Source of the DNA: a virus
Length of the DNA stretch: 64,000 nt
Strand: one strand, 5' to 3'
IMG/VR virus record: IMGVR_UViG_3300029858_000005
In this document: positions 36,709 to 56,147 of the stretch, in pieces
Numbering within the stretch: position 1 is the stretch's first letter
Layout: each line of letters opens with the position of its first letter
Position numbers and translations under genes: made by a program
Notes under the pieces: generated by a model
What the model was told of the DNA's origin: nothing
The model's input: the letters and a program-made list of their open reading frames with translations, nothing else
Database searches by the model: none

Positions 36709-36716
36709 TACCTTTG
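36709..36716 (+). promoter_or_regulatory. early rightward promoter (-33 TTTG at 36685-36688, -7 TACCTTTG)
   Basis: Both Bacteroidales consensus elements are present with a ~20-nt spacer, about 60 nt upstream of the ATG at 36778. Confidence 0.55.
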
Positions 36717-36777
36717 TAGTACAAAAAGAAAGAGATAGGACACTATCTTATAAGTAACATTTAAACAATTTAGGTAT

Positions 36778-38209: not shown

Positions 38210-38259
38210 CCTAATCTCCCTACGCTTGTAGGGAACGAATAACCAAAAATATTAGAATT

Positions 38260-38394
38260 ATGAGTACGCTGAGAATTAAATGCCTCGATATGTGCGAGGT
38301 TGAGAGTATCATTGCAGATGCTCAGGAGATTTTGAGTCACGTAGAATTCGGGTCGCTAAAGAATGGTGTGCTTACATTATTCTGCGTGGCGTGA
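38260..38394 (+). CDS. hypothetical small protein (44 aa)
   Basis: Start cassette taaccaaaaatattagaattATG. The stop sits within TGAGCCTAA. Too short for the ORF track. Confidence 0.45.
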   Translation: MSTLRIKCLDMCEVESIIADAQEILSHVEFGSLKNGVLTLFCVA

Positions 38395-38465
38395 GCCTAA
38401 AAATCCGTAGCCAGTACGATAATTGTCGTGCGTGGCTACGGAACAATTACCAATATTTTAGAATT

Positions 38466-38699
38466 ATGAAAGCAAGACAGATCATTTATTCAAGTACGAT
38501 AATTGTGCTTGGATTTATTCAGAGTGCGCCGGCATTCATTTGCTTGGCAAGTACGATAATTCTCCTGAATGTGCTTGGAATTCTTTACGGAATTCTGCTT
38601 GTGTATATTTGGAGCAGTACGAAAAAGGGTAAGTGGTATTTCCGTGAGCTGTGGAGATCCACACTCCGCTTGGAGAATTTCATCCTTCCTGGAGTTTAA
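38466..38699 (+). CDS. small two-helix membrane protein (77 aa) overlapping AGTACGATAAT repeats
   Basis: Start cassette present. The track ORF starts earlier at 38391. The repeated DNA encodes STII three times. Confidence 0.45.
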   Translation: MKARQIIYSSTIIVLGFIQSAPAFICLASTIILLNVLGILYGILLVYIWSSTKKGKWYFRELWRSTLRLENFILPGV

Positions 38700-38801
38700 G
38701 AGATTTGGAAAGTACGATAATTGTGCTTGGAAACATTTAGCTAAATTCTGCTTGGAGAAATCCAGGCAGTACGATAATATAACCAATTAAATTACAGAAT
38801 T

Positions 38802-38999
38802 ATGAAGAAGAATATTTTCGTGGCATTGTTTGCCGTAGTGTGTGTTGCATTGTTTGTAGTATCAATTACTCTGTATAATTGTCACAGGGCGAACGTGATG
38901 CTGAGAAAGACTGTTATCAGCCAGGCTAACGAGATTTTGAAACTAAACGGCTGTCACACAGCAGAGGGAGGTACAACGTTCGTAGGTCTCAGAAAGTAG
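38802..38999 (+). CDS. small membrane-anchored protein (65 aa)
   Basis: Start cassette present. N-terminal hydrophobic helix. Confidence 0.55.
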   Translation: MKKNIFVALFAVVCVALFVVSITLYNCHRANVMLRKTVISQANEILKLNGCHTAEGGTTFVGLRK

Positions 39000-39062
39000 C
39001 CAAAAAATGTGCTCAGGCATTTTCCTGGGCATACTATGTAAAACCATTAAACAAATTGAATT

Positions 39063-39239
39063 ATGTTAGACAGAAAATCACAGAAGAATTTTGAGCGTGC
39101 GCTTATGCATGAGATGGAGAAGATCAAGATTGCAGCGCGCCAGTGGCATAGCAACAATACTAAGGGCTACAGAGATTATCGTAGCAAGAAAACTATCTCC
39201 AAGAGTTTCTCTGAGATTGCGGTATTGTGCATGAGCTAA
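39063..39239 (+). CDS. hypothetical small basic protein (58 aa)
   Basis: Start cassette aaaccattaaacaaattgaattATG. Preferred over the antisense track ORF 39078..39275. Confidence 0.45.
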   Translation: MLDRKSQKNFERALMHEMEKIKIAARQWHSNNTKGYRDYRSKKTISKSFSEIAVLCMS

Positions 39240-39287
39240 ATGTGCGTGACGATTGTCACGCATACTATTCACCAATATTTAAGAATT

Positions 39288-39578
39288 ATGATAGATGAAG
39301 AATACAAGGAGAATGTAGAGTACATACTCTCTACGATTTTGCCTAAGTTGCAGGAAATCCAAAAAAAAGTATTGAAAAATCAATCAAGACTGAGCCTTGA
39401 TGTTAGCGTTAGCAATAAAAACGGCGAAGGGTATATAAGTTGTTTTGCCTGTGTCATGAATGACATGGGAGAAATAACGGATACTTGTTTTCCACGTTTC
39501 ATCTGCGTATGCAGCAAAGAGGAGATGGACGAGCGGCTCAACGAGCTTAAAGAGTTCATCAAGAAGCACCTAACCTGA
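39288..39578 (+). CDS. hypothetical protein (96 aa)
   Basis: A start cassette marks the internal Met of track ORF 39240..39578. Confidence 0.55.
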   Translation: MIDEEYKENVEYILSTILPKLQEIQKKVLKNQSRLSLDVSVSNKNGEGYISCFACVMNDMGEITDTCFPRFICVCSKEEMDERLNELKEFIKKHLT

Positions 39579-39627
39579 AATTGAGGGAGTTATTTCTCCC
39601 TCTCCTATAAACCAAAAATGTAGAATT

Positions 39628-39897
39628 ATGAGCAAGTGGATTCAGTTTTATCATAAGATTAACAAGTTTGACCTTGTGAACATGAGATTTACGGATGATT
39701 TCAGTATCGTGGAAATGGTGGGCATGGATTCTGTCATGCCTATCGACGGCAGATTGAGTCTGTCATCCATACGTGATGTAGTACAAAAGAAAATCGAGAG
39801 CATGAAGAAAATCGAGAGTTTCGACCCTTGTGCGTTCTCCATCCTCACCGGTCCTACTATTCTGTGTGCTTCAGAAAGTCCGGTGTACAATCTCTAG
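39628..39897 (+). CDS. hypothetical protein (89 aa)
   Basis: Start cassette present. Stop within TAGCCAGA. Confidence 0.55.
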   Translation: MSKWIQFYHKINKFDLVNMRFTDDFSIVEMVGMDSVMPIDGRLSLSSIRDVVQKKIESMKKIESFDPCAFSILTGPTILCASESPVYNL

Positions 39898-39954
39898 CCA
39901 GAACTGGGCAGTACGATAATGCGCTGCCTGCTATTAACCAAAACAGAATATATT

Positions 39955-40119
39955 ATGACAGCAGAAGAAAAGACTCAGCTAGAGAAGCTTGTAGAAAAGT
40001 ATTTGAAAGAAGATGCGTACAAGCCACGAGGATGGGGAGAGAGAGCCGCAAGGAAGTTTCTCAGCGCATTAAATGGCGAGTGGCTTCTTACGTACAGCTT
40101 TAGACCAGATCCGGCGTAG
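39955..40119 (+). CDS. hypothetical small protein (54 aa)
   Basis: Start cassette at the internal Met of track ORF 39919..40119. Confidence 0.45.
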   Translation: MTAEEKTQLEKLVEKYLKEDAYKPRGWGERAARKFLSALNGEWLLTYSFRPDPA

Positions 40120-40164
40120 TTATTTGCTACGCCTCCAATTATTAACCAAATCAAAATTAGAATT

Positions 40165-40341
40165 ATGACAGACGGAGACAGAAAGTTCCTTGCCAGGCTC
40201 GTAGCGAGTCACAAGGCAGTTATCAGCGAGGAGTGCAGACGCAAGAATCTCGACAAGAGCGAGTATTTCAGACGCGTAGCGCGTGCAGACAAGAAGGCTC
40301 GGGAGATTGAGCAAGCGTGCATGAGTCCTCGCAAATTCTAG
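40165..40341 (+). CDS. small DNA-binding candidate (ribbon-helix-helix-like, 58 aa)
   Basis: Hand translation gives MTDGDRKFLARLVASHKAVISEECRRKNLDKSEYFRRVARAD... The KSEYFRR segment resembles RHH/MobC-type motifs. Start cassette present. Confidence 0.4.
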   Translation: MTDGDRKFLARLVASHKAVISEECRRKNLDKSEYFRRVARADKKAREIEQACMSPRKF

Positions 40342-40402
40342 CCAAACATTCTGTGCAGTCTATCTGCACAGAAACCATGTTAAACCATAAAAATGTAGAA
40401 TT

Positions 40403-41296
40403 ATGAAGAAAATTGTTAATACATTTACGAAGATTTTCGTACGAGACGGAAAGCGTCACAGAATTGTCGCTGTCGCTTCTTTAGGTGATGAGTGCAGAAA
40501 TAACATCTGCACTTTCTCTATTACAGGTCAGATAGATATTTTCTGTTTCGGTTCATGGCACTGCAAAACCTGCGGTTGCATTACAGACGAGATATGCAAA
40601 TTCTTTCCGGAATTGAAGCCATTTGTAAATCTTCACATGTGCAACTACAAGGGACAGCCATTCTATACTGTTGATAATGGCATTTACTATGTATCCCAAA
40701 GTAAGGAGATTGCTATGCGTAATCTCAGAATTACCGAGGATGAGTACGAGGCCCTGCTCCCTGCTGCCGAGCTGAACGACAAGGACTATTTTGTCTATAA
40801 GCTGTTCAAACTTGGCATCGTTAAGAGATGGAAGTCTGAAGCAGACAAGTTCATTGAGTTTCTTCTTCGCCAAGGAGGTGAATGGGAGAATCCATACACT
40901 ATCAGCGACGAAAGACCGACAATTAAGCTGACCGGAGGCATAAGAGCTCTTGTAGAATCCAGACTCAAGAAAGGATACTACACGAAGGAAAATATTGATA
41001 AGATATTGCAGCAAAGAAGAGCTGACGAAATCAGCAAGAAACGTCAGTCTGTAATTGAAGAGTTCTACAAGAAGACCGAAAAAGCTCGCAATGAGCGTGA
41101 CGTGATGCTTTACATTCTTGACCACGGTCTTTCTATCGGTAACGTGATTTATTACGATTACAACAACACCGTGAAGTTCAACTGGCTCGATTACAAGGAG
41201 CAGATTACGAAAGAACAGTTCGAGAATTTTATTGGGAACTTAGATCCCAGCAAGTTGCCTGAGGGTATTAAATTCTCAATCGACATCAAGAAGTAG
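40403..41296 (+). CDS. hypothetical protein (297 aa, N-terminal Cys cluster)
   Basis: Track ORF with start cassette. Confidence 0.65.
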   Translation: MKKIVNTFTKIFVRDGKRHRIVAVASLGDECRNNICTFSITGQIDIFCFGSWHCKTCGCITDEICKFFPELKPFVNLHMCNYKGQPFYTVDNGIYYVSQSKEIAMRNLRITEDEYEALLPAAELNDKDYFVYKLFKLGIVKRWKSEADKFIEFLLRQGGEWENPYTISDERPTIKLTGGIRALVESRLKKGYYTKENIDKILQQRRADEISKKRQSVIEEFYKKTEKARNERDVMLYILDHGLSIGNVIYYDYNNTVKFNWLDYKEQITKEQFENFIGNLDPSKLPEGIKFSIDIKK

Positions 41297-41351
41297 CCAA
41301 CCAATCCTCACTACAACGGGTGGGGATTTCTATTAACCAAATATTAGAATT

Positions 41352-41690
41352 ATGATAACGGATTACTACACAGCCGTACACTGGCTAAAAAGTGCGTTCA
41401 TCCTCTGTAACGAGATTGTAGAGAATGACGAATCAGTGATTGAAAACATCGAGTATCCAGAGATGACAGAAGAAGAAAGGAACAGAATCGAGATATTCCA
41501 GTGGTTCCTCACTAACATGAGCGAAGAGGATAAGGAATGGATGCAGAAGAATTTCCCTGATCTTATCTTCTCTTACTCAGACAAGCTTGACTTGTGGATT
41601 CTTTGCGTAGATCATTTTGGAACGATGTGGAAGGGAGTCCCAACGACTACCAACTGCGAGAATGCGGCAAAGGCTAGCCAGCTGCCGTAG
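41352..41690 (+). CDS. hypothetical acidic protein (112 aa)
   Basis: Track ORF, flanked by two near-identical cassettes. Confidence 0.6.
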   Translation: MITDYYTAVHWLKSAFILCNEIVENDESVIENIEYPEMTEEERNRIEIFQWFLTNMSEEDKEWMQKNFPDLIFSYSDKLDLWILCVDHFGTMWKGVPTTTNCENAAKASQLP

Positions 41691-41748
41691 CCAAACCAAT
41701 CCTCACTCCCATGGGTGGGGATTTCTATTAACCAAAGATTACAGAATT

Positions 41749-41988
41749 ATGAGTGATTTAGAGAAAATCCTGAATGACGATTTACTGAAGTGTAAAATCG
41801 TTGAGTCAGTAGAGAATCCCGTTAGGCGTGTGGACCTTATCAAGTGGACGCACGACAATACATACTCTATTGCTGAGGTACGCAAGGATACCGGTAAGCT
41901 AGAGGTCACAGACTTGAAAGCTGCCAGTGGTCTTGATGCATACAAGCATTTCTACAGAAATTATGGCGACATTGCCATATGTGGCTAA
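41749..41988 (+). CDS. hypothetical protein (79 aa)
   Basis: Start cassette at the internal Met of track ORF 41617..41988. Confidence 0.55.
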   Translation: MSDLEKILNDDLLKCKIVESVENPVRRVDLIKWTHDNTYSIAEVRKDTGKLEVTDLKAASGLDAYKHFYRNYGDIAICG

Positions 41989-42041
41989 AACTCCCCACAC
42001 CATTGTGGGGAACCATTATGAACCATTAAAACAGATGAATT

Positions 42042-42581
42042 ATGGAAAAGAATATTGTAGAAGTTGTTATGAATAACAAGGGTGAAGTTGTCGAGAAAGT
42101 AGCCGATTATATCGGTGTGGCAAGTTTTGCCGCGGTTATCGAGAGCCTCTATCGTGAGTGTCTTGAAAATTTCGATGACGCAGAGGATCTGGAAGAATAC
42201 ATTGCAGATGTATTCGAAAAGAATATCCAGTCTCTTGCGTGGGAGTTTACCCACAAGGTAAACAGAGAGATGAAGAAATATCTCCATCTTAACGACCAGC
42301 GCATGGATGGTAATTTTGCCAATCTGTACAACGATTATCCTAGACACGTTACAGGTACGTTCTGGGCGACGGACTACGATGGCGACGATTACTACGATTT
42401 GTATCCTCAGATGGTAGCCAGACTCGATTCCGCAGAGGACAGCGAGCAGGCGAACGAGGATAGAGCGTACCTAGAGGAATGGTATTTCAAGGCGTTCGGC
42501 ACGTACAACATCAAGTACAATTTCTCGAATGAGCTTGAAGAGGTTCACTCCATGATGGAGGAAGATTATGAGGAAGCCTAA
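42042..42581 (+). CDS. hypothetical highly acidic protein (179 aa)
   Basis: Track ORF with start cassette. The D/E/Y-rich composition could fit a DNA mimic, but this is unproven. Confidence 0.6.
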   Translation: MEKNIVEVVMNNKGEVVEKVADYIGVASFAAVIESLYRECLENFDDAEDLEEYIADVFEKNIQSLAWEFTHKVNREMKKYLHLNDQRMDGNFANLYNDYPRHVTGTFWATDYDGDDYYDLYPQMVARLDSAEDSEQANEDRAYLEEWYFKAFGTYNIKYNFSNELEEVHSMMEEDYEEA

Positions 42582-42636
42582 CAATATCCCCTAGCATGGG
42601 GATATTCAATGTTAAACCATTTAAATGATATTAGAT

Positions 42637-43479
42637 ATGAGTTACGAATTTGCAAAGAAAGAAATCGGCGATTACAGAATCACCATTTATCAGGATGAGA
42701 ATGCCGAATGCCCTTGCTCTGCATGGGATTTGGCAGGCGTATATCTTTGGGAGTATACCAGTTGCGGTAGTGGAAGATTAAGTAACGGCTGTAACTGGGA
42801 TGAAATATACGACAGAAAATACGACACTAATAACCACAGTTTGCAGGATGCTCTTCGTGAGCTTGTATACATGTACGTTCCGCAGAATCGTCTTGTAAAA
42901 TATCTGAAGAGCAACAAGCATCGCTCTGCCAAATTATCGTATGATAGAAGCTCTCATGTTTGGGAACTTGATTATTACGACAGCAGAGAGGCATACAAGA
43001 CTTCGGTAGAGTTTACTCCTGACGAAATCAAGAACTATGAAATGAGAGCAGAGATGATCGAGCCTATGAACAACGAGGACTTGATATGGCTGCTTGATGA
43101 CATAGCTTACGAAATCGTGATATACGAGTGGTCTTCTACGGGATACTGCCAGGGAGACTACGTAGAAGGCATTGCCTATTGCGACAAGGAGCGCTTCAAA
43201 AAGATGGTTGATACAAATACCAAGAACTGGAAGAATCGCGCTATCGAGCTGTTTGAGAGCGAAGTCAAGGATATTGGTATGTGGATGTGGGGTGATGTAA
43301 AAAGTTACGTCCTAGAAAAGAAACGCCCGTATACAAAATTGTACGAGGACGGTAAATCTTCTGATTCCTACGAGTGGAAGCAGATTGAATCCTGTTGCGG
43401 AGAGTACTTCGAAGATGCTGATGACCTCATCGAAGAGGTTATCAAGGAACACGGCTTACAGCCGAAAGATGCAGCCTAA
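42637..43479 (+). CDS. hypothetical protein (280 aa)
   Basis: Track ORF 42625..43479. The ATG at 42637 matches the ttagatATG cassette. Confidence 0.6.
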   Translation: MSYEFAKKEIGDYRITIYQDENAECPCSAWDLAGVYLWEYTSCGSGRLSNGCNWDEIYDRKYDTNNHSLQDALRELVYMYVPQNRLVKYLKSNKHRSAKLSYDRSSHVWELDYYDSREAYKTSVEFTPDEIKNYEMRAEMIEPMNNEDLIWLLDDIAYEIVIYEWSSTGYCQGDYVEGIAYCDKERFKKMVDTNTKNWKNRAIELFESEVKDIGMWMWGDVKSYVLEKKRPYTKLYEDGKSSDSYEWKQIESCCGEYFEDADDLIEEVIKEHGLQPKDAA

Positions 43480-43527
43480 CAAGGGGAGCTTGCATGCTCC
43501 TCTTCCATTAACCAATTAAATAGAATT

Positions 43528-43788
43528 ATGGGAAAGATTACAATTTCGCAGAAGGGAAGTAGAACTATCTACAGAGTGAACAGAAGAATCGTGTGCTATC
43601 GTGACGGGCACAAGTATTGTGTGGGCAAGCCATCATCTGGCAGCACCCATATCGAGCTTGATGCCTTGTCCGAGAATATTGCACACGAGAGATGCATTGA
43701 GATTTGTGAGCGTAGAATCAATGCGGAGATGAAGTATCAGAATCCTGTCGCATACAACGCCCACAGAGTATTGAACGCATTAGCCTAA
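43528..43788 (+). CDS. hypothetical protein (86 aa)
   Basis: Track ORF with start cassette. Confidence 0.55.
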   Translation: MGKITISQKGSRTIYRVNRRIVCYRDGHKYCVGKPSSGSTHIELDALSENIAHERCIEICERRINAEMKYQNPVAYNAHRVLNALA

Positions 43789-43841
43789 AAACGGAGGGAG
43801 CAATCCCTCTGACATTATTAACCAATAAATTATTAAGAATT

Positions 43842-44249
43842 ATGGATAAAAAAGAAATGTGGAAAGTACTTGGACGTGACGATTACGCACACAAGTCTCA
43901 AGAACTGAAAAAAAAGTGCGAGGAACTGGCGAAAGCTATATGCGATAAGCTCATTGAGCTTGACATGACAGAAATCTTCATCCCTCGCTGTGGTATTACC
44001 TTCAGAGTTATTACCGTGCAAATAAGTTGTGTTAAACGCATTCTTCTTGCGCTAGAGAGTGGCACCATTTACTATTTGTTGCAAGAGTTTGATATATGCA
44101 ACATACATGCTGGTGACCTTAATGTGAAGGTTGGCCGCGTAGTAGATGCACTTAGTTTTGTTACTCACTTGGACGAGATATTACAAGAAATATCGAAGAT
44201 TGAGGACAAAGAAGTCGCAGACATCGAAGCTGCTCTCAAGAGACTCTAA
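43842..44249 (+). CDS. hypothetical protein (135 aa)
   Basis: Track ORF with start cassette. Confidence 0.6.
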   Translation: MDKKEMWKVLGRDDYAHKSQELKKKCEELAKAICDKLIELDMTEIFIPRCGITFRVITVQISCVKRILLALESGTIYYLLQEFDICNIHAGDLNVKVGRVVDALSFVTHLDEILQEISKIEDKEVADIEAALKRL

Positions 44250-44259
44250 CATCTATCAT

Positions 44260-44301
44260 CCGTGAGCGACAGGCGCACATCGGGTTCGAGACCCGACACG
44301 G
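44260..44301 (+). other. tRNA-like minihelix (closing stem plus small hairpin plus T-arm-like hairpin)
   Basis: ccgtg-a-[gcg acagg cgc]-aca-[tcggg TTCGAGA cccga]-cacgg. Confidence 0.3.
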
Positions 44302-44329
44302 AACAATATTAACCAAAATTACAAGAGTT

Positions 44330-44557
44330 ATGAAGAGATATTACGTATCAGTCACAGAGCATTTAAACAAGGTAGTCAGCGTTGATGCTGAGAGTGAGAA
44401 TGAAGCCGTACAGAAAGTGCAGGATGCCTATAATAATAGCGATATTATTCTTGACGCTGACAATTTCTCAGGTGAGGTTATCGAGATCGAACCAGATCAG
44501 GAGTACTGGAGAGAATCCGAAGAGGATGACAGCGCAGCACTCCAGCATATCGACTAA
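44330..44557 (+). CDS. hypothetical acidic protein (75 aa)
   Basis: Track ORF with start cassette. Confidence 0.55.
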   Translation: MKRYYVSVTEHLNKVVSVDAESENEAVQKVQDAYNNSDIILDADNFSGEVIEIEPDQEYWRESEEDDSAALQHID

Positions 44558-44609
44558 GCCTAAAAAGAGAGGGTAGCTCCCTCTCACAATAACCAAAACA
44601 AGAAGAATT

Positions 44610-45875
44610 ATGAATGAAGACAGAATCCTAGAGATGTTCTTCGAAAAAGCCAGATGGCAGTATGCTATCGAGAAAGGCTTATTCAAGGACATGAACAAAG
44701 CAGTAATGTATCAGCTGACGACACCGGAGGCTCGTCTGGCTATGTATCAGAGGATCAAGAGCGGCAATTACAAGATAATGCCGCCACACACAGCGAAGAT
44801 TCCGAAAGACAACGGAGATTTCCGCACTGTCTATGTGAATGAGGCTGTGGACAGAATCCTCCTGAGCATAGCCAACGACCTCCTGTTCGAGCTGATGCCA
44901 GAGATGGTGCATTCACGCTGCACGTCATACCAGAAAGGTATCGGCTGCGGCCGTGTTGTACAAGATGTCTCTCATATAATATACTCGGCAGATGGTAGAA
45001 TCATCGGATTCAAGTCCGACTTATCCAAGTACTTTGACAACGTGCCTATCCGATTCATCGACTGGGCATTTGACAGAGTAGAGGAGAAGTGCGGAAAATC
45101 TGCACTGATAGATGTCATCCGTGACTACTATCACACAGATATCTATTTCGATGAGGACAATAACCTCTGCGAGAAGTATCAGTCCCTCAAGCAGGGATGC
45201 TCTGTTGCCGCATGGCTGGCTGACGTGGTTCTATACCATATCGATGAGATGTTGTCGAGTCTGAACGGATATTACGTCCGTTACTCAGATGATATTCTCT
45301 TCGTTGGCGAGGACTACGAGAAAGCCATGGATATACTGAAGAGCGAGCTGGAGAAGATGCAGATGACGCTCAACCCGAAGAAGGTTGAGTATCTTGACGC
45401 AAATCACTGGTTCAAGTTCTTGGGATATTCCATCAAGGGTCACAATATCTCTCTGTCGTCCACACGTATCAAGACCTTCCAGAAGGAGATTGAGAAAAGG
45501 ACGATAAAGAAGCGTGATACTACGATGACGAAAGCCGTCAATGCTGTAAACAGGTATCTCTACAAGGGGTACTGCGATTACTCCTGGGCTACTCAGGTTC
45601 TTCCGGTCATAAACGTGAAAGAGGACATCGACAAGCTCAACACCTTCGTCATGGACTGCATCCGTGCGGTCAAGACAGGCAAGAGAAAGATCGGTGGTCT
45701 CGGATACGTGAAGACTCAGGCTGTAGGTTGCATAGACCGAGGTCGTGGAAGGAACGTGAAAGCCAACAGGAGTAAGACAGAGAGCGAAATCAAGGGGTAT
45801 CTATCGATAGGTTGTGCTCAGAATGCCTTGCGAACGAGCAGGGCAGCGTACAACACATTGGTGAATACTTTGTAG
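44610..45875 (+). CDS. reverse transcriptase, group-II-intron-like (RT domains 1-7 plus thumb/X-like region; no endonuclease domain)
   Basis: RT motifs seen: IPKDNGDFRTVYV (RT1), SYQKGIG (RT2a), FKSDLSKYFDNV (RT3), LKQGCSVAAWLADVVLYHID (RT4), YVRYSDDILFVG (RT5, YxDD), LNPKKVEY (RT6), FKFLGYSI (RT7). VNRYLYKGYCDYSW is X-domain-like. Confidence 0.9.
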   Translation: MNEDRILEMFFEKARWQYAIEKGLFKDMNKAVMYQLTTPEARLAMYQRIKSGNYKIMPPHTAKIPKDNGDFRTVYVNEAVDRILLSIANDLLFELMPEMVHSRCTSYQKGIGCGRVVQDVSHIIYSADGRIIGFKSDLSKYFDNVPIRFIDWAFDRVEEKCGKSALIDVIRDYYHTDIYFDEDNNLCEKYQSLKQGCSVAAWLADVVLYHIDEMLSSLNGYYVRYSDDILFVGEDYEKAMDILKSELEKMQMTLNPKKVEYLDANHWFKFLGYSIKGHNISLSSTRIKTFQKEIEKRTIKKRDTTMTKAVNAVNRYLYKGYCDYSWATQVLPVINVKEDIDKLNTFVMDCIRAVKTGKRKIGGLGYVKTQAVGCIDRGRGRNVKANRSKTESEIKGYLSIGCAQNALRTSRAAYNTLVNTL

Positions 45876-47160
45876 ATGAGCATCCTAGCGCAGGGATTTT
45901 GCCGGAATGAAGATACAAGGTTTTAAATATCCCGGTTGCGGAGTACAGGGACCATCTAATACCTAGATGGTCCTCTGTTCGTCCTAAACCGGGCATTATC
46001 AATCTGATATAGCTATGCGCAGCATCTTCTGACCGGCAGACTCTGTAACCGAGCACACGGACGTGGGAGAAGGACGGACAGATTCAGGCAACGCCTCTAT
46101 AACATCATCTGATTGATCCAGCTATCCAAGTTTACAACTTGAGACAGCTGGATCATTCATATGGCACAAGGCGTAGCTCATCAATGAAGTACAGAGATGT
46201 GCCGGTCCGCATGACTCTCGCAGGTGGCGCACACCACCACTCACTGACGGATGGCAATAGTTTATGAAACAGGTCTCTTAACCAGACTCTGGATCCTGGT
46301 AACACCCGGATCCTGAGTCTGGCGAATCCTGTGTCAAATCAGAAACATAAAGTATTGTGCCGAGCCATCGGTCAGGGAATCACCCTAACACGAGGGTAGT
46401 CTTTAAAGGAGAGTGAATTTATGAGTGCTGTTTACATGCCGCCGGTGTGGCCGGCGGCTTACAACAGCCCTCGAATCAAGCTGTTATAGCTACGTGCCAC
46501 GCTCTCAGATGAAGACAACGTTATTGCCAAACGAGGTACACGAGGAGGAATTCTTTATATCACGAGCTTTGTAACTCGCGGGGAGGCATCCTTAGAACAA
46601 CGATGCTCCCCGCGATATCAGCTCCCTCAATCGCCAAGATAGAGATAGACAACAGACCTATGAGTGTACCTACAAACAACCAAAGTGAATTGCATCACGA
46701 CTTATCAAGAGTATGAGGTTTAATATCCCGTAAGGTGGAATACCTGTGCCTGCCGATATCTCCGCAGGCACAGGTATCCAGTCACGGGACCGAATCAAGA
46801 ACATATATCCATGCAACATAATACATGAGATAAGTCATTCGCATTGCAGCGATGTCTGGCAAGTTCTGAGAGTTCATCGAGCGTTTCATTGATTCTGAAG
46901 CCAAGGATGTGGAAGCGTACGCTTCCTGAGGTTGGCTTCATAACAATGCCACGCCCTTAATCAAAAACTTAAAGCAATGCAACGTATCAGGTTGAGTCAG
47001 ACTAGGTTATTGCGAGCCGAATGGTGCGCAAGGAGAATAGATTGTACAATACGGTATCAATCATCCTGAAGATCCAGGTGGTTACCTGGATCTGTCAGGA
47101 CTTAGATACAGTATTAATCAAGACCTTATAGTTACGCAACAGATTCTCTGAGCGCACTCC
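45876..47160 (+). ncRNA. ~1.3-kb ORF-free, hairpin-dense region downstream of the RT: candidate large structured ncRNA
   Basis: No ORF of 60 aa or more lies wholly inside on either strand. All three stop codons occur in all frames. Perfect or near-perfect stems at 45949-45973, 46115-46154, 46282-46322, 46438-46458, 46577-46614, 46741-46776, 46897-46939 and 47065-47099. Confidence 0.5.
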
Positions 47161-47182
47161 TATTAACAAATATTTAAGAATT

Positions 47183-47428
47183 ATGAACAGCAAATTACTA
47201 AAGAAGCTTGAGGAAATCAAGAAAGAGTACGAAACGTCAGAAGTTTGCATGGGCGAGATGCTTGATTCAGTAAGTGCAGACGGATTATCTGTCGAGGATG
47301 CACACTGGTTGTATATGCGTGCAATGGAGTGGGCGAACGGAGATAAATTCTATATCCACATTGGAGAAGACGAAGACGTACTGAGTAAGGATGAACTCGA
47401 AGAAGCCAATTTGATAGTGCTAGAATAA
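47183..47428 (+). CDS. hypothetical acidic protein (81 aa)
   Basis: Track ORF with a variant start cassette (TTAACAAA). Confidence 0.55.
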   Translation: MNSKLLKKLEEIKKEYETSEVCMGEMLDSVSADGLSVEDAHWLYMRAMEWANGDKFYIHIGEDEDVLSKDELEEANLIVLE

Positions 47429-47460
47429 GCACTATCCCTATTAACCAATACAATAGAATT

Positions 47461-47913
47461 ATGACATACGACGAGATTATCAATGCAGTTGAGAATGGTG
47501 CTAAGTTCATCATCAACTTCCAGAAGAGAACATGTAGGGTGAATGGTAAGATAGTGATGTCCGAGGAAGATAAGCCGAAAGATACACCTTACCTGACACA
47601 TGCAGTAGTCCTGTTCGCAATAGAACAGAGATATAAGGCATACAAGCATTCTGTGCCATCAGAGCGTTCCGAATCCCATCGCCGCTACTACTTCAAGGCT
47701 TTGCCAGAGAAAGAGCTCACAGACGAAGATATGATGTATGGTGAGCGACGGGAGGTAGCGAGATGCAAGCTAGAACTATACGTCCTTATGCAGCTGCTCA
47801 GAGGAAACCTTGCATGGGAGAACAGATGGGGCAGATGGTTCTGGAAGTCAGAGAACGACAAGGATCTGATTATCCTCAGAGACTGGGTTGAGCCAAACAA
47901 GGGTGGGGCGTAA
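47461..47913 (+). CDS. hypothetical protein (150 aa)
   Basis: Track ORF with start cassette. Confidence 0.6.
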   Translation: MTYDEIINAVENGAKFIINFQKRTCRVNGKIVMSEEDKPKDTPYLTHAVVLFAIEQRYKAYKHSVPSERSESHRRYYFKALPEKELTDEDMMYGERREVARCKLELYVLMQLLRGNLAWENRWGRWFWKSENDKDLIILRDWVEPNKGGA

Positions 47914-47970
47914 GCCTCATCCACTAGAGTTAAATAAATTTTTAGTAACCAATTTAAAATAATTAGAATT

Positions 47971-49041
47971 ATGAAGCAGATTGTAACAATCACTGGTGAG
48001 AACTTGAACATCGTAACAAAAAACGTAGAGGCTACAGCAGCTACCCAGAAGACCAAGGCGCAGATGCGTCTCGAAGCTCTTAAGGCAGCAGGCGTTGATA
48101 CTAGTAAATATTTCCCTCTCGGTGACGACCAGCTTATCAAGATCGAAAATGGCGCAGCAGTTCCTGTAGACATGGACGATGCAACCATCGATGCGGTAGG
48201 CAAGCAGATTGTCGAGGGTGGATACGTAAGCAACTGGAAGCTCTTCCGTCGTTGGGTGATGAGTCAGATGTTCCACATGTTGCGAGACATGGATAAGAGT
48301 TATCTGTCATTCAACGAGGTGTTGCAGCACAAGGGCTACGAGTATCAGTGGCGCATGTTGGAGAACGAGCTGCATGCTCAGATGAAGATGTGTGACCACA
48401 AGGATTACGAGAACACCAAGGCGAGAAATCGCTGGTTCAACGGCTGCGTAGCACACGATATGGCTATTGACTATATTAACAAGCTTCGCAGCTATATTGA
48501 CGACAAGTGCATCTACACTACCAAGATAGACAAGGATGGAAAAAAGAAGAAGACATACAAGCATACCTGCAAGGGTAATCCTTATATCCGTCTTCAAAAC
48601 GAAAACATCTTCGTCGCTGACTTGGAGAGAAAGGTATACAATCCTCTCCGTGACCTTGCCAACAAGATGGGGGCTGTACCGACCTACACCTACAAGGAGC
48701 TCTACGATGCAGTTCGCGAGTTCAACAAGAACCGCAAGCATCTCGCATGGGATACCAAGCAGGCAGATGCATTCATTCATGCTTACAAAGGGTCTGGTTC
48801 CTACTACACGATGAGAAACCTCATCATGTTCCATGGAGCAAGATTCATGAAGAACGGACGAAAGATGTCAGAGGCCAATTCTCTGAAGGAGCTTGAGTCT
48901 AAAGCCAAGCTCTACGATGAAGAGGGTTGGAAGATGCTCGGTGTACTCAAGCAGCTTATCAAGGACAATAATATAAGCGTCCAGGGCAAGATTCTTGAAT
49001 GGAAGAAAGCCAAGAGCGAGAACAAGGAAGAGGTTCAGTAG
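47971..49041 (+). CDS. hypothetical protein (356 aa)
   Basis: Track ORF with start cassette. Confidence 0.65.
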   Translation: MKQIVTITGENLNIVTKNVEATAATQKTKAQMRLEALKAAGVDTSKYFPLGDDQLIKIENGAAVPVDMDDATIDAVGKQIVEGGYVSNWKLFRRWVMSQMFHMLRDMDKSYLSFNEVLQHKGYEYQWRMLENELHAQMKMCDHKDYENTKARNRWFNGCVAHDMAIDYINKLRSYIDDKCIYTTKIDKDGKKKKTYKHTCKGNPYIRLQNENIFVADLERKVYNPLRDLANKMGAVPTYTYKELYDAVREFNKNRKHLAWDTKQADAFIHAYKGSGSYYTMRNLIMFHGARFMKNGRKMSEANSLKELESKAKLYDEEGWKMLGVLKQLIKDNNISVQGKILEWKKAKSENKEEVQ

Positions 49042-49262
49042 GACGTAAGGTTCGCCACCTAAAGAATGGTGGCTCGGCAGCAATTCACAAGAGCTTCTTC
49101 AACGAAGGATCTCCTCCAGTCACTACTGGAGGTAATCCTTCGAGCTAAAGCTCTCTAGATCGAACTTATAGAGTAAGGCGCCAGCCGGGGACCATTTTAG
49201 CCAAAAGTCGGTTACTGATTCGGTAACCGATTCGAAAAGTTTAACCAATAAAATTAAGAATT

Positions 49263-49658
49263 ATGAAGGAAATTAATGTAGACACAAGAGAGTATATTAA
49301 GGCTCTTATTGACGGGAAGAATGTCGTCGAGGAATCACTTCTAGACGCAATCTTTGACGATTCGCAATATCTCACCAATAAGTTTTTTTCATTGGGATTT
49401 GTAGGAGGCGCACCTACAATGATAGAGTATCACGGAAACTACCTATCTATCAGGAAGCTTCGATCGTGGATTACATCAGAGTGGGGTAGAGAGATTGTCA
49501 AACGACTGACTGGCGAATCAAAAAATAATATATACTATTTCGAGACGAAGCAGTATCTCGACGAACGCCAGGCTGAGCCTTTAATCTATACATTCTTTCT
49601 GAGCACAGATTACCTTACTGTAAGATTTCACTACAATGTAAAAGTAGATGAAGATTAG
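49263..49658 (+). CDS. hypothetical protein (131 aa)
   Basis: Track ORF with start cassette. Confidence 0.6.
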   Translation: MKEINVDTREYIKALIDGKNVVEESLLDAIFDDSQYLTNKFFSLGFVGGAPTMIEYHGNYLSIRKLRSWITSEWGREIVKRLTGESKNNIYYFETKQYLDERQAEPLIYTFFLSTDYLTVRFHYNVKVDED

Positions 49659-49709
49659 CCAAACATGTCAGTCGTTAGCAGCGGCTGACTACTCATATCA
49701 TAACTAAAT

Positions 49710-49758
49710 TTTGTTTAAATGGTTCAAGCCGGTCTGTCGTGAGACACGCCGGTTTTTT
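49710..49758 (+). terminator. TTTGTTTAAATG motif plus 13-bp hairpin with GTGA loop plus T-run (copy 1)
   Basis: aagccggtctgtc-gtga-gacacgccggttt(ttt). It contains a 7-codon ATG..TGA mini-ORF. Confidence 0.5.
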
Positions 49759-49792
49759 GTTCCACAAGTTTAACCAATTTTAAATTAGAATT

Positions 49793-50497
49793 ATGAGTAG
49801 AAATTACTGGACATTAGGTAAGGAAGGAATTAAGACTCGTCTGTCAAAGGCACAGGCAGCTTACGAGAACGCATTGGAGAATGTAGAGAACCTGCACGTC
49901 AAGATCAGTGATGGCAACAACAAGTTGGGAGCAATCCCATCTGTTTCGCTCATCCCGGTCATGGATTGCGGTAACTGTGCAATCTGTGCCAAGAGCTGCT
50001 ACGACCTGCGTAACGACCTCATCTACAAAGAGGTCGTCAAGACTAGAGCTATTAACTCCGCAATCTATCACGTGGATCCTGAGCGATACTTCAAGGAGAT
50101 TGATGACTACCTCAACTACCGCTATCCTAGAGCATTCCGATTCCACATCGGAGGCGACATCCGGGACAAATGGTATCTTGACAAAATGTGCGAGATTGCT
50201 CGCAAGCATAAGGATACCAAGTTCCTTGCGTTCACGAAGATGTTCGATGTGTGCAACGAGTATCTCGATGAGGGCAACGTAATCCCTGGGAACATGCACA
50301 TTCTCTTTTCGGGGTGGCTTGGTCTCAAGATGGATAACCGCCACGGATTTCCGGAGGCGCATCCTATCTTCGAGAGCGGAACGTCTGCTCCGGAAGGAAC
50401 ACGTCTGTGTACCGGGAACTGCACAGAGTGTCTGAAGGAAGATAGGTTGTGCTGGTCTATCGGGAAAGGTCAGGCGGTAGGATTCCTTGCACACTAG
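49793..50497 (+). CDS. GP88-family-like Cys-cluster protein
   Basis: KLGAIPSVSLIPVMDCGNCAICAKSCYDL...FRFHIGGDI...FLAFTK resembles the phage GP88 domain pattern (SLP..TCPG...C...CYA...GD...TK), recalled from memory. Confidence 0.4.
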   Translation: MSRNYWTLGKEGIKTRLSKAQAAYENALENVENLHVKISDGNNKLGAIPSVSLIPVMDCGNCAICAKSCYDLRNDLIYKEVVKTRAINSAIYHVDPERYFKEIDDYLNYRYPRAFRFHIGGDIRDKWYLDKMCEIARKHKDTKFLAFTKMFDVCNEYLDEGNVIPGNMHILFSGWLGLKMDNRHGFPEAHPIFESGTSAPEGTRLCTGNCTECLKEDRLCWSIGKGQAVGFLAH

Positions 50498-50556
50498 CCA
50501 AAAGCCTCGTCGAAACGACGGGGTACTATGTTTAACCAATTAAAATTTTGTGAATT

Positions 50557-50991
50557 ATGGCATCAGCAAGAAGAGGTACAAGAATGCTCAAAGCTTCCGA
50601 CATTATGAAGAGAAAGGGCATTGTCCAGAAACAGATGGACATGGACAAGTTCAACGAGGTTGTAGAGAATTTCTTTATGACCCATGAGCCTAAGGAGACG
50701 ATTCTCCTTACTCCGAAGAGATTCATCGAGATGGATAACCCGCCAAATGGAGACTTCATTGACTATCTCGATGTCAGCGTGTGGAAGAAGAGAAGCGAAG
50801 ACCCAAATGACCCGTTCGACTTCATCGACTTTCAGTACATGAAGAAGAACGGGATGCTCCGTCCTATCCTTATAGTGAACGAGCCTTTCATCGGCAATGC
50901 TGCCGGGTGGCTGAGAGATTTTTGTGGATTCACTGTGAAGAACAGAACACGAAAGAAGAAGAAGGAATATATCGTGTCTCTGCCGGTGTAA
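50557..50991 (+). CDS. hypothetical protein (144 aa)
   Basis: Track ORF with start cassette. Preferred over the antisense ORF 50563..50997. Confidence 0.55.
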   Translation: MASARRGTRMLKASDIMKRKGIVQKQMDMDKFNEVVENFFMTHEPKETILLTPKRFIEMDNPPNGDFIDYLDVSVWKKRSEDPNDPFDFIDFQYMKKNGMLRPILIVNEPFIGNAAGWLRDFCGFTVKNRTRKKKKEYIVSLPV

Positions 50992-51054
50992 AGCCAAACA
51001 ATGCGTGGAACATTCTGTTTCACGCTCCTAGTATTAACCAATTAAAATAGAGAT

Positions 51055-51423
51055 ATGGAAGATTTAGAAAGATTCAAGAAGTTTGTCAGAGAGAACAATC
51101 CTATGGTTCCTGACTTGTTGCAGGAGTTTGAACCAGTCCGCAAGATCGATTCCGTAGAAGATATCAACGATTGTGACTGGATTCATCTAATGGATGAGTA
51201 CGATGCGGCGAACATCACCTGGAAGGCTCAGATGATGGCGCAGGAAGTCGAAGATGCGCTCGGCAGCGATGAGTACACCTGCCACATACAGGAATACCCG
51301 AAGAGCGGCCGTATAGGTGTTATCATCGATGGAACACAAGAGTTCCTTGGCAAGAAGAGCGAATGCGAGAATTATCTTCAGGGGCTCCTTAGAGCACTGG
51401 AAATCACAAAGGAGAATCACTAA
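51055..51423 (+). CDS. hypothetical acidic protein (122 aa)
   Basis: Track ORF with start cassette. Confidence 0.6.
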   Translation: MEDLERFKKFVRENNPMVPDLLQEFEPVRKIDSVEDINDCDWIHLMDEYDAANITWKAQMMAQEVEDALGSDEYTCHIQEYPKSGRIGVIIDGTQEFLGKKSECENYLQGLLRALEITKENH

Positions 51424-51479
51424 GCCGAACAAGCCTGCCTGGAACGGTGGGCATCAAGTTAAACCAAAATATTAAGATT

Positions 51480-51998
51480 ATGAAGAGAAAAGTATTGAAA
51501 GACAAGATTGATGAGTTGCGTTCAACAGCAAAGATGGAACTTGCATGCACCATCCGTGAGATAATGAGAGAGCACAATGTGAGCAGAAAGGTGTTCGATT
51601 GGCCTGTACTTGCCGGCGACAACAGGGAGGTGAATATCGTAGAAGTAGGCGACAGCGAAACAGCTATCCCTATCATTCATAGCCGATGCACTTCTGTAGG
51701 GTTTGAGTTCCCGGAAGCAAAAGCTATCGATGACGATATACCAGTTGACCTTCTTGCAGACATCGCTACTAGTCTGAACGACGAGCTGAACGGCTATATC
51801 GGTGTCTATGCTGCAAAGTATAAGATTGCCTACAATGATGGAATTTTCATTCCTAAGGAGAATCCGTACGTATTCCGGGCAGAATCATATAAAGATGCAT
51901 TGGATGAGGCGGAAGACTACATGCGTGTGTGGAATGACCATAATGGTTCTACCCTAAGACTCGTGTCAGTCGAGAAGCAGACTGCTTCGGAAGGTTAA
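51480..51998 (+). CDS. hypothetical protein (172 aa)
   Basis: Start cassette at the internal Met of track ORF 51447..51998. Confidence 0.6.
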   Translation: MKRKVLKDKIDELRSTAKMELACTIREIMREHNVSRKVFDWPVLAGDNREVNIVEVGDSETAIPIIHSRCTSVGFEFPEAKAIDDDIPVDLLADIATSLNDELNGYIGVYAAKYKIAYNDGIFIPKENPYVFRAESYKDALDEAEDYMRVWNDHNGSTLRLVSVEKQTASEG

Positions 51999-52047
51999 AT
52001 TAGCGTTAAAAACGGCAAAGACGATGGTTTATATTATAAACTTTTCG

Positions 52048-52055
52048 TATCTTTG
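52048..52055 (+). promoter_or_regulatory. -7 promoter motif (TATCTTTG) in front of the internal recombinase gene
   Basis: It lies in the right arm of an imperfect inverted repeat (52014-52024 / 52045-52057). The loop of that repeat contains GGTTTATAT. Confidence 0.4.
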
Positions 52056-52081
52056 CCACTAGTAACCAAAATTATAGAATT

Positions 52082-53101
52082 ATGACAGAAGAAATAAGAA
52101 TCAAGACAAGAGATTGGGAGAGACTTCTGAGCTACACTCAGCAGCAGAAGTACAAGACTGCCATCAAGCAGGGTTGGTTCGCCAATTATCACGGCAACTC
52201 GTGGAGGCATGACACGTTCTATGGCGCATACATCTGGAAATACCCGAAACTTATTAAGGTTGTAAGGATGTTCGAAGAGATGCTTGGACATAAGCCATTA
52301 TGGGAAGACATCACCGACGACAATCTGCGCGACCTCTATGAGAAGATTCAGGAGAACTACGCTCCTAACTCGGCAAGAACCGTATGTGCAACCATCAAGG
52401 CCGTGATACGTGAGAACGATGCTACCAGGGAAATTCCTAGTCCTACGTTCGGCAGAATACTTAGAGCGAAGGCTGTACCGGTTCAGTCTGTATATCTCTC
52501 TGATGAGGAGATAAACAGGATCATCAAGTACAACCCTCACGGGAAAACAAAAAGATATGTTCAGAGAATGTTTATCATGGAATGTCTCTGTGGCGCACGT
52601 TACAGCGACTGCCAGAGGATGACGGAAGAGAACATAGATGATACCGGACACTTCCTCGTGTATGTTACTCAAAAGACAAAGACCGAGGTAAGGGTTCCAC
52701 TTCACAAGAAGCTCCGTAAGTTCCTCGTATGCGGCACTGGTGACGAGCCTCTTCCGGGTGAGATAGGTGAAAGGACGTTCAATAGAGCACTCCGCGATAT
52801 CTGTCGTGACTGCGGAATAGATACGAATACAAAGGTGTTCAAAGCTGGAAAGGAAGAGACAGGAAAGAAGTATCGGTTCGTATCATCCCATACGGGCAGA
52901 CGCTCGTTCGCAACGAATCTCTCAAAGAAGGGAGTACCTCTTGAGCAGATTGCCGTCATGATGGGACATACCAGTAACGGTATGCCTAATATACAGATGA
53001 CACAGCGCTACATTGTCGGTAAGACCGAGATTGACAGCAATACACTGAGATTGTTCGGCGTCTATGAAGAAGACCTCGATAACGGTCTAGATGAGGATTA
53101 A
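52082..53101 (+). CDS. tyrosine recombinase (second, internal copy)
   Basis: Catalytic-type residues seen: CGARYSD (Arg), SSHTGRRSF (His-x-x-Arg), MMGHTS (His), TQRYI (Tyr). Confidence 0.8.
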   Translation: MTEEIRIKTRDWERLLSYTQQQKYKTAIKQGWFANYHGNSWRHDTFYGAYIWKYPKLIKVVRMFEEMLGHKPLWEDITDDNLRDLYEKIQENYAPNSARTVCATIKAVIRENDATREIPSPTFGRILRAKAVPVQSVYLSDEEINRIIKYNPHGKTKRYVQRMFIMECLCGARYSDCQRMTEENIDDTGHFLVYVTQKTKTEVRVPLHKKLRKFLVCGTGDEPLPGEIGERTFNRALRDICRDCGIDTNTKVFKAGKEETGKKYRFVSSHTGRRSFATNLSKKGVPLEQIAVMMGHTSNGMPNIQMTQRYIVGKTEIDSNTLRLFGVYEEDLDNGLDED

Positions 53102-53164
53102 GCTAAAACTGGAGGTGGCCAGCTGCCATCTCCTGCCATTGTTTAACCAATTAAAATAATGATT

Positions 53165-53587
53165 ATGGTAGAAGATTATACAGTAGAAGAGTTGAATAAA
53201 CTCATCAATGAGTGTCGGAAGAAGTACGAAAAGCTAGAAAAGGAGACCGTCATGAAGGCTCTGACTGGCGAGATTGGTACGAACTCCGCAATGGTGGAAG
53301 AGTTGGAGATACTCAACATCCACTATCACGATGAAATGGATGAGTACGATATAACTGCACCTGACCTGAATCCAGATCTTATCGATAATTTCAAGAGGGC
53401 AGAGCGTGATGGCAAGAACGTCATCTTCGAGGCACAGGAATATCTTAAGATCCTGGGAATGTGCGAAGAAATGTTCAACCAGAAGCTATGGGTCAACGAA
53501 GATGGCCACATATGCGATGAAGAAGGTAATAGACTTTCCGCCGACAGAGAGCATCGTGTTTTCGAAGTTGTTAAGTGCGGAAAATAA
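53165..53587 (+). CDS. hypothetical acidic protein (140 aa)
   Basis: Track ORF. The ATG at 53165 matches gattATG. Confidence 0.55.
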   Translation: MVEDYTVEELNKLINECRKKYEKLEKETVMKALTGEIGTNSAMVEELEILNIHYHDEMDEYDITAPDLNPDLIDNFKRAERDGKNVIFEAQEYLKILGMCEEMFNQKLWVNEDGHICDEEGNRLSADREHRVFEVVKCGK

Positions 53588-56139: not shown

Positions 56140-56147
56140 AGTATAAA

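Follow-up and report, generated by a model that had tools for sequence, protein, structure and literature searches.

We analysed a 64,000-nt stretch of DNA from the IMG/VR virus record IMGVR_UViG_3300029858_000005 (the window), in which the gene of a reverse transcriptase (RT) of 421 amino acids (aa) is followed by 1.3 kb of non-coding DNA and, farther downstream, by conserved genes for accessory proteins of 150 aa and 356 aa (Table 1). Judged by its sequence, the RT is a full-length member of UG27, a family of class 2 UG/Abi RTs; the 1.3 kb is a tandem array of eight similar, folded and paralogous units (U1–U8) of about 125–180 nt with a period of ~160 nt; and the order RT, array, 150-aa gene, 356-aa gene is conserved down to about 55% RT identity, with a unit number that varies.

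The reverse transcriptase gene and the region that follows it

A preliminary description of the window, made from its letters alone, had reported the RT motifs including YSDD, together with a thumb/X-like segment, in the 421-aa open reading frame (ORF), and every motif it quoted was found: YSDD at residues 225–228 (nt 45282–45293), LKQGCSVAAWLADV at residues 193–206, FLGYSI at residues 270–275 and VNRYLYKGYCDYSW at residues 313–326. The RT4 region reads QGCSVA, within LKQGCSVAAW, and a basic C-terminal extension (GGLGY...RGRGRNVKANRSK) is encoded by nt 45693–45776. The sole domain in a Pfam scan of the RT was RVT_1 (residues 64–275, E = 1.4 × 10−19), with nothing significant in residues 276–421 and no endonuclease or other extra domain, in agreement with the earlier statement that an endonuclease domain is lacking. 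YxDD is invariant across 34 diverse RT homologues, and the RT is under strong constraint and its active-site motif is intact.

The gene opens with a start cassette made up of a hairpin, the heptamer TAACCAA, a spacer and the start codon. The pattern TAACCAA-N8-18-ATG occurs in 19 copies in the window, compared to 1.4 expected, and the copy at the RT start lies at 44590–44616. Copies of TAACCAA-N8-18-(GAATT)ATG span positions 38240–53167 on the + strand, with a further one at 31327–31349 on the − strand, and a short G+C-rich hairpin usually precedes each of them. The cassette resembles a phage-specific signal (promoter, processing site or translation start) that would serve a long run of small genes on the + strand. 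Of the earlier claim that the RT has the same cassette as 28 neighbours, the part that concerns the RT stands; the exact pattern gives 19 copies, and the figure of 28 presumably counts variants with one mismatch, such as TAACAAA at 47166. That the RT is an integral gene of the phage is borne out by its use of the phage's own start cassette and by the retention of the module in all 80 close relatives.

The RT stop codon adjoins the longest ORF-free stretch of the window, as had been noted, at ORF thresholds of both 60 aa (46057–47182) and 100 aa (45876–47460); the next longest such stretch is 921 nt. We identified 416 relatives in IMG/VR; 80 relatives were close (RTs 94–99% identical), and 73 distinct sequences were used for consensus folding with RNAalifold and for ORF checks. 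The region is kept in 80 of the 80 close relatives, in which the median DNA identity is 83.5% for the region vs. 92% for the RT gene and 91–95% for the flanking genes. Its conservation is patchy: blocks of 95–97% identity alternate with hairpin apices at about 40–55%. RNAalifold predicted 58 helices in eight successive closed domains, with many compensatory pairs, among them about half or more of the apical pairs of U1, U3 and U6 (Table 1). No Rfam family was detected at the gathering score in the whole window, and a scan of the region at E up to 10 returned weak unrelated matches only (eukaryotic miRNA-hairpin models etc.).

A tandem array of eight folded units

When folded singly, all eight units show the same architecture. 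From 5′ to 3′, a unit consists of a helix P1, a symmetric internal loop (5′-AAG / UGA-3′), a helix P2, a UUCAAU-like junction and a long irregular hairpin, followed by the single-stranded sequence AUCAA-N5-UAnAG-nnAnGC (the 3′ motif) and the return strands of P2 and P1. The pattern ATCA-N6-TANAG occurs in six copies on the + strand within 45998–47131 vs. three in the remaining 63 kb. A covariance model (CM) seeded on U8 (R1) matches six other units in the 1.3 kb, with scores from 36.6 bits (E = 1 × 10−9) downward, the match to U7 being a 23-nt fragment around the motif; all full-unit matches are on the + strand, and those on the − strand comprise only palindromic hairpin apices (the best at 47049–47114, 19.1 bits). 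Covariation-supported units fill positions 45896–47175, which upholds the earlier pairing of the RT with a structured RNA; the same description had envisaged a single RNA with five to ten times the length of a retron non-coding RNA (ncRNA), in place of which there is an array of eight retron-sized units.

The units are conserved far beyond the close relatives. A hidden Markov model (HMM) of the 3′ motif, run over all fetched loci, gave 803 matches on the + strand (the RT strand) vs. one on the − strand, with a median spacing of 163 nt, and over 254 distinct units the motif positions AU, UA.AG and A are 99–100% invariant. In an alignment of 36 units from diverse phages (A6), 22 of the 23 pairs change on both sides and 91.5% of the cells form standard pairs, compared to 60.8% after shuffling and 34–42% with the partners slid, counts that lean toward structure and are somewhat inflated, as this alignment was fitted to the model. 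In the basal helices, G-U occurs 39 times vs. 14 for A-C, an excess that favours the + strand as the RNA strand. In the alignment of U8 (A3), 12 of the 23 pairs keep pairing via double changes, and this unit is detectable by sequence in loci with RTs 64–70% identical.

Single units differ in how well they are kept. U7 is present or absent among the relatives, the segment 46840–46990 being gapped in about 26–32% of them, and the apex of U5 is ~40% conserved among relatives whose RT DNA is 92% identical. A ninth unit after the 356-aa gene is probable: a weak match at the same position was found in 90 of 105 close loci, and clear units lie there in distant loci. The array is also polymorphic among near-identical phages; one of them (L064) is without about 790 nt, corresponding to units 1–5 and part of unit 6 (L064 7267–7776).

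The apices (e.g., 46282–46322, 46564–46624, 46736–46780 and 47064–47100) occur as discrete, very different 'alleles' among phages with 92%-identical RT genes. The apical hairpins are almost wholly Watson-Crick, with G-U making up 3.7% of the pairs (0 of 650 in U8). Apex alleles combined with strict pairing suggest either an exchange of cassettes or selection that acts on the RNA as well as on its complement. We also considered the low G-U content of the apices as a sign of a functional cDNA hairpin and discarded it, as the apices do not stand out clearly from the basal helices (3.7% vs. about 5%).

Table 1. Features of the UG27 locus in the window (positions in nt).
Feature	Position	Strand	Evidence and remarks
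RT start cassette: hairpin GAGAGGG-tagc-TCCCTCTC, TAACCAA (44590), spacer, ATG	44567–44609	+	sequence
RT ORF, UG27 reverse transcriptase, 421 aa	44610–45875	+	full-length RT_UG27 match; Pfam RVT_1
U1	45896–46042	+	apex hairpin 45940–45984; 3′ motif 45998; RNAalifold, 9/17 compensatory apex pairs; CM R1 45903–46035; lone fold −59.9 kcal/mol
U2	46060–46224	+	3′ motif 46180; RNAalifold domain 46063–46221; P1-AAG/UGA-P2 base by inspection and minimum-free-energy fold; CM R1 finds the apex only
U3	46238–46381	+	apex hairpin 46282–46322; 3′ motif 46338; RNAalifold, 10/20 compensatory apex pairs; CM 46251–46370
U4	46396–46519	+	3′ motif 46475; CM 46409–46508, 16.5 bits; fold
U5	46509–46688	+	hypervariable apex 46564–46624; motif variant AUCGC...UAGAG at 46630; CM 36.6 bits, E = 1 × 10−9
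U6	46696–46839	+	apex hairpin 46736–46780; 3′ motif 46794; RNAalifold, 12/19 compensatory apex pairs; CM 46705–46830
U7	46840–46994	+	3′ motif 46960; partial CM match 46958–46980; motif; fold
U8	46995–47175	+	best-conserved unit, seed of model R1; 3′ motif 47117; abuts the start cassette of the next gene
81-aa acidic ORF	47183–47428	+	lineage-specific; in 87/112 close loci, in no distant locus; no family match
Conserved 150-aa accessory protein	47461–47913	+	homologues 36–55% identical 3′ of the RT in most loci with 55–70% RT identity
Conserved 356-aa accessory protein	47971–49041	+	homologues 29–47% identical
Candidate U9	49085–49215	+	gap after the 356-aa gene; CM 15.1 bits, E = 0.08; 3′ motif HMM E = 0.14

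Family membership of the reverse transcriptase

Classification against curated models, which the preliminary description had proposed as a check, places the RT in UG27. The PADLOC model RT_UG27 matched with E = 4.7 × 10−225 and 745 bits over model positions 2–420 of 420; the runners-up were UG26 (116 bits), Drt9 (UG28; 93 bits) and UG17 (92 bits), and Drt2 scored 50 bits. Membership in DRT2, DRT9 or DRT10 was rejected on these scores. As in class 2 UG/Abi RTs, no known domain is fused to RVT_1. The NCBIfam model for group II RT/maturases (TIGR04416) gave 105 bits, below its cutoff of 300, so that the earlier placement of the RT nearest to group-II-intron-type RTs is correct at the superfamily level only, the specific family being UG/Abi class 2. 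The PDB entries matched by the RT sequence were Cas6-RT-Cas1, group II intron RTs (the GsI-IIC RT with E = 1 × 10−10), a DRT9-like RT and DRT2, with E-values of 1 × 10−11 to 1 × 10−4, and no deposited UG27 structure was found in this search. The DRT9-like RT is entry 9ioa, which we take to be such and which is deposited under the name 'RNA-dependent DNA polymerase'.

The family UG27 was defined by Mestre et al. (2022, NAR 50:6084, PMC9226505), who place it in class 2 of the UG/Abi RTs and report no additional domains. In the same study, it was found in 1,447 dereplicated predicted gut-phage genomes, with Bacteroidetes and Firmicutes as hosts; two or three conserved genes of unknown function accompany it, grouped as the domain-less clusters 337 and 346 (and 336), and a putative ncRNA 'with three long stem-loops' occupies the intergenic region from the RT to cluster 336, which is at times a target of host CRISPR spacers; no enrichment in defence islands was observed, and an anti-defence or addiction role was suggested (PMC9226505). 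The present locus is like these systems in its full-length match to the RT model, the absence of a fused domain, a gut Bacteroidales phage as the carrier, and two conserved domain-less genes 3′ of the RT with a non-coding region of long stem-loops between. It differs from the published main text, which speaks of 'three long stem-loops', in having 8(+1) paralogous units of variable copy number; nothing that defines the family differs. The preliminary description had proposed the locus as a candidate for an undescribed RT-ncRNA module, which it is not: the RT fits UG27 end to end, and RT, ncRNA and accessory genes in gut phages were published in 2022, so that the module is already known as UG27 (PMC9226505) and the anatomy of the repeat array is what is added here. 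The array itself has probably been published too: a September 2026 preprint (bioRxiv 10.64898/2026.09.22.753630) uses the terms 'UG27 ncRNA' and 'ncRNA array', which is a lead and not evidence.

The closest characterised systems are the class 2 UG RTs DRT2 (UG2), DRT9 (UG28) and DRT10 (UG17), which use an ncRNA as the template and make, respectively, rolling-circle cDNA, poly-dA, and 7-nt repeats from a loop flanked by two ACU triplets (bioRxiv 10.64898/2026.04.29.721553). They share with the RT studied here the RT class and, in UG28 and UG17, two of the next-best HMM matches, and their stand-alone RT depends on a dedicated structured ncRNA. However, they serve bacteria in defence and have one ncRNA, in most cases 5′ of the RT (and, in DRT10, a SLATT effector), whereas the present module is phage-borne, its RNA lies downstream and is repeated 2–9 times, and its accessory proteins show no relation to known effectors. 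No telomerase- or DRT10-like flanking direct repeat is conserved across the units at their 3′ motif, and repeat synthesis is therefore not predicted.

Retrons, in which an msr-msd ncRNA with a1/a2 repeats and a branching G gives rise to 2′-5′-linked msDNA, were rejected as the family of this locus, as they had been in the preliminary description: the NCBIfam St85 retron RT model scored 41 bits, compared to a cutoff of 235 (the Drt models were likewise far below cutoff), the best of the PADLOC retron RT models gave E = 1 × 10−13 vs. 4.7 × 10−225 for UG27, and both the layout and the position of the ncRNA differ. A unit nevertheless has the size of a retron ncRNA, with a closing helix (like a1/a2) around a long hairpin (like msd) that varies while its pairing is kept; but the conserved motif lies 3′ of the hairpin rather than in a 5′ msr, and the array is downstream of the RT. 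No retron msr was matched in Rfam and no branching-G context was identified in the units, and the resemblance is one of shape only. We know of no natural retron array.

A group II intron was likewise rejected, in line with the earlier remark that the RT is not embedded in ribozyme domains: group II RT/maturases are the best general-library matches (TIGR04416 and, in the PDB, the GsI-IIC RT), but no ribozyme family was found around the ORF in Rfam even at E up to 10, there is no endonuclease, the score is below cutoff, and ordinary genes and the start cassette lie upstream, and the ORF is not inside an intron.

As a separate observation, a relative of the RT was found as part of a 1,872-aa predicted protein (P0122), residues 1–435 of which are a UG27 RT (68% identity); this may reflect either a genuine fusion or translation through a recoded stop codon.

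Conservation of the module across phages

Distant RT relatives in IMG/VR were gathered with a 10-sequence alignment; single-query IMG/VR searches with two of the distant RTs (P0132 and P0149) gave no matches, and no near-identical DNA was found among GenBank phages. One RT cluster at 90% identity comprises 6,526 sequences. The order RT, array, 150-aa gene, 356-aa gene and further units recurs in loci with RTs 55–70% identical, where the interval from the RT to the 150-aa gene holds 2–8 units and 1–3 more follow the 356-aa gene, depending on the lineage. In distant loci, the homologues of the two accessory genes start at most about 3.8 kb 3′ of the RT stop, and the 356-aa homologue always follows the 150-aa homologue. 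By contrast, the genes upstream of the RT and the 81-aa ORF are lineage-specific. The accessory genes are placed differently in three loci: L168 has both of them 5′ of the RT, L091 has a 150-aa homologue that overlaps with the called RT ORF, and L167 has one that directly adjoins the RT stop. In every lineage where units were detected, they were found only in modules with a UG27 RT.

The two accessory proteins have no match in Pfam, PHROG or the PDB. AlphaFold2 models of the 150-aa protein (predicted local distance difference test, pLDDT, 74) and of the 356-aa protein (pLDDT 60, a low-confidence model) gave nothing in Foldseek searches of the PDB. The 150-aa protein is probably one of Mestre's clusters 336, 337 or 346, and the 150-aa and 356-aa genes together would correspond to these published clusters.

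Hosts and a cultured relative

RTs 94–99% identical to that of the window are present in Segatella (Prevotella) copri assemblies, and an RT of 94% identity lies in the complete chromosome of Segatella copri HDD04 (NZ_CP152484.1, 917321–926583; L174). RTs of 63–70% identity were found in large chromosomal contigs of Alistipes, Bacteroides, Muribaculaceae, Leyella, Butyricimonas and others. Because these RTs occur in chromosomes, the carriers are temperate phages or prophages of Bacteroidales, and the window probably represents a type of temperate phage of S. copri.

The module is also present in a cultured phage. The temperate Bacteroides phage BS-TP1 (PQ571274.1) encodes a 68%-identical RT, gp79 (79351–80613; L171), which is annotated as 'tail protein' and is followed by a 1,349-nt unannotated gap with about seven unit motifs and then by gp80 (150 aa), gp81 and gp82 (365 aa). 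BS-TP1 has been reported to carry a diversity-generating retroelement (DGR) (PMC12694917). This consists of the RT gp25, the Avd-like gp26 and the target gp27, far from gp79, and gp25 is 22% identical to the UG27-type RT.

A model for the array and its alternatives

Most probably, the locus is a UG27 system, the class 2 UG/Abi RT module of temperate phages and prophages in gut Bacteroidales, in which the units would be bound by the RT as its templates. No terminator-like site was found on the + strand between the RT stop and the end of the array, nor any start cassette between the RT and the array, and the array would therefore be co-transcribed with the RT gene from the cassette of the latter. 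Each unit would be a separate RT substrate of roughly the size of a retron ncRNA, with the invariant base (P1, the AAG/UGA loop and P2) and the 3′ motif, AU(C/G)A-N6-UAnAG-nnA-nG, serving as the site of RT docking and initiation. A portion of each unit, with one arm of the long hairpin as the likeliest candidate, might be copied into a short cDNA in a retron-like manner, which is the most economical guess; in that case, a set of hairpin single-stranded DNAs (ssDNAs) or of RNA-DNA hybrids with different, fast-evolving apices would arise from the locus, and the two accessory proteins would act on or with these cDNA products. That the units template short cDNAs is suggested by analogy with the characterised class 2 UG RTs (bioRxiv 10.64898/2026.04.29.721553).

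As for the role of such products, the candidates are anti-defence decoys, prophage-encoded exclusion or defence, and a function in replication or lysogeny. Given the near-identical RTs in Segatella copri chromosomes, a prophage-borne role, such as superinfection exclusion, is as open as counter-defence. A further possibility, which we regard as rather doubtful, is a natural multiplexed cDNA factory, in which the units are independent retron-sized templates, the paired apices are the specificity determinants of the hairpin ssDNAs, and the unit number is tuned by duplication and loss; such ssDNAs may be, e.g., decoys or triggers aimed at nucleic-acid sensors of the host or of rival phages. If this holds, it would be the first array of RT templates found in nature, with reverse transcription put to use by the phage, and it may already be reported in the September 2026 preprint.

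Several observations weigh against the templating model. The nucleotides that would be templated and the mode of priming are guesses, and no template or priming site is identifiable in the unit sequences. The accessory proteins offer no functional clue from family, PDB or Foldseek searches. At the level of the units, U2 and U6 were missed by the sequence HMM and U9 was weak, and the pair counts of the 36-unit alignment are inflated as noted above. Furthermore, a check that had been proposed earlier, whether the RT and the downstream region are kept together in relatives, came out positive for the 80 close relatives and for most distant loci, but not in two cases. In L167, there is no unit between the RT and the 150-aa gene, and the sole unit was found after the accessory genes. 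In the lineage with RTs of 57–62% identity (L152, L122, L137, L104, L115, L169 and L083), genes lie directly 3′ of the RT, single unit-motif matches occur only 3.4–3.9 kb 3′ of it, at the edge of the fetched DNA, and no homologues of the 150-aa or 356-aa proteins were detected within 4 kb of the RT. These layouts indicate that the adjacency of RT and array is common and not obligatory.

Among explanations in which the RNA is not reverse transcribed, the units could be phage small RNAs that function in their own right (regulatory small RNAs, protein sponges or decoys akin to RNA anti-CRISPRs) that are merely co-transcribed with the RT. Hypervariable apices and a variable copy number are what would be expected of decoys or sponges, units also lie away from the RT, after the accessory genes, and the want of a recognisable template or priming site fits this explanation as well; we nevertheless consider it improbable, given that the units occur only in UG27 RT modules, that the RT is strongly constrained with an intact active site, and that the precedent among class 2 UG RTs is templating. 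Less probable still is that the 1.3 kb forms one large, globally folded RNA, either ribozyme-like or a giant ncRNA such as GOLLD, ROOL or OLE. Conservation and structure are contiguous over the 1.3 kb, and one weak long-range pairing is predicted (46042–46044 with 47177–47179), but the eight domains are self-contained and mutually paralogous, their number ranges from 2 to 8 among lineages, U7 is optional, L064 is short of about 790 nt, and no Rfam family matches.

The repeats might instead act as DNA, i.e., as origin iterons, packaging or recombination sites, or palindromes, with an incidental linkage to the RT. The inverted repeats are tandem, periodic and near-perfect, and the scarcity of G-U in the long hairpins resembles that of a DNA palindrome. 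However, the orientation relative to the RT is fixed in 803 of 804 motif matches, G-U exceeds A-C in the basal helices, asymmetric single-stranded motifs and internal loops are conserved, as is typical of RNA, the units track the RT and the two accessory genes across very different phage genomes, and the nearest characterised relatives of the RT need an ncRNA, so that a DNA element appears very improbable. A DGR with its template repeat (TR) in the non-coding region and its variable repeat (VR) elsewhere in the genome would account for a phage-borne RT beside non-coding DNA, and a DGR has been reported in the related phage BS-TP1 (PMC12694917). The searches, which covered the 64-kb window of a genome roughly 25–30 kb longer, found no TR/VR-like repeat of 44000–47500 by self-BLAST, no match in a scan of adenine-masked 40-mers, no repeat of at least 45 nt apart from the cassette hairpins, no second RT and no Avd-like gene (BS-TP1 gp26 has no match in the window); the RT4 motif is not the [LIV]GxxxSQ of DGRs, the variation in the region is compensatory in stems and not specific to adenine, and the DGR of BS-TP1 is bona fide, separate and built from other genes. 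The rejection of a DGR in the preliminary description, which had relied on the RT4 motif and the lack of a visible TR/VR pair or Avd, is thus sustained, the self-comparison that it had proposed to exclude a hidden pair having revealed none in the window, and we regard a DGR here as extremely improbable. Equally remote is a conserved small protein-coding gene hidden in the region. ORFs of 30–59 aa are present on both strands, but each of them is intact in 0–49 of the 73 distinct relatives, mostly in fewer than 25, frame-breaking indels are frequent, and the substitutions are stem-compensatory.

UG27 is among the most abundant RT families of the human gut virome, and the literature, as far as we have read it, assigns no function to it. 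Phages themselves keep this UG/Abi-type RT, where such enzymes are otherwise, with rare exceptions, used against them. Its RNA partner is divided into 2–9 modular units with a hypervariable apex on an invariant base, which gives mapping, mutagenesis and expression work defined targets, and the function is made directly testable by the occurrence of the same architecture in the cultured phage BS-TP1 and in a completely sequenced S. copri strain.

Other features of the window

Directly 5′ of the RT lies a 75-aa gene (44330–44557) of the DpnD/PcfM-like type (Pfam PF14207, E = 1.7 × 10−18), which is kept in 106 of 112 close loci and is outside the module in distant lineages. On the other side of the module, a 234-aa protein (49793–50497) matches the GP88 family (PF17338, E = 1.2 × 10−16; phrog_1392) and is common to a few distant UG27 loci, 3′ of the module. 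A 48-nt direct repeat (92% identical) was found at 41299–41346 and 41694–41741, upstream of two neighbouring small genes and overlapping their start cassettes. The second-longest ORF-free stretch of the window (35857–36777, 921 nt) is A+T-rich (GC 0.31 in 36001–37000), and gene orientation and GC skew switch there; it is a candidate origin or divergent regulatory region. A further ORF-free stretch of 640–770 nt lies at 56140–56909, and an isolated copy of the 3′ motif pattern of the units is present at 57471.

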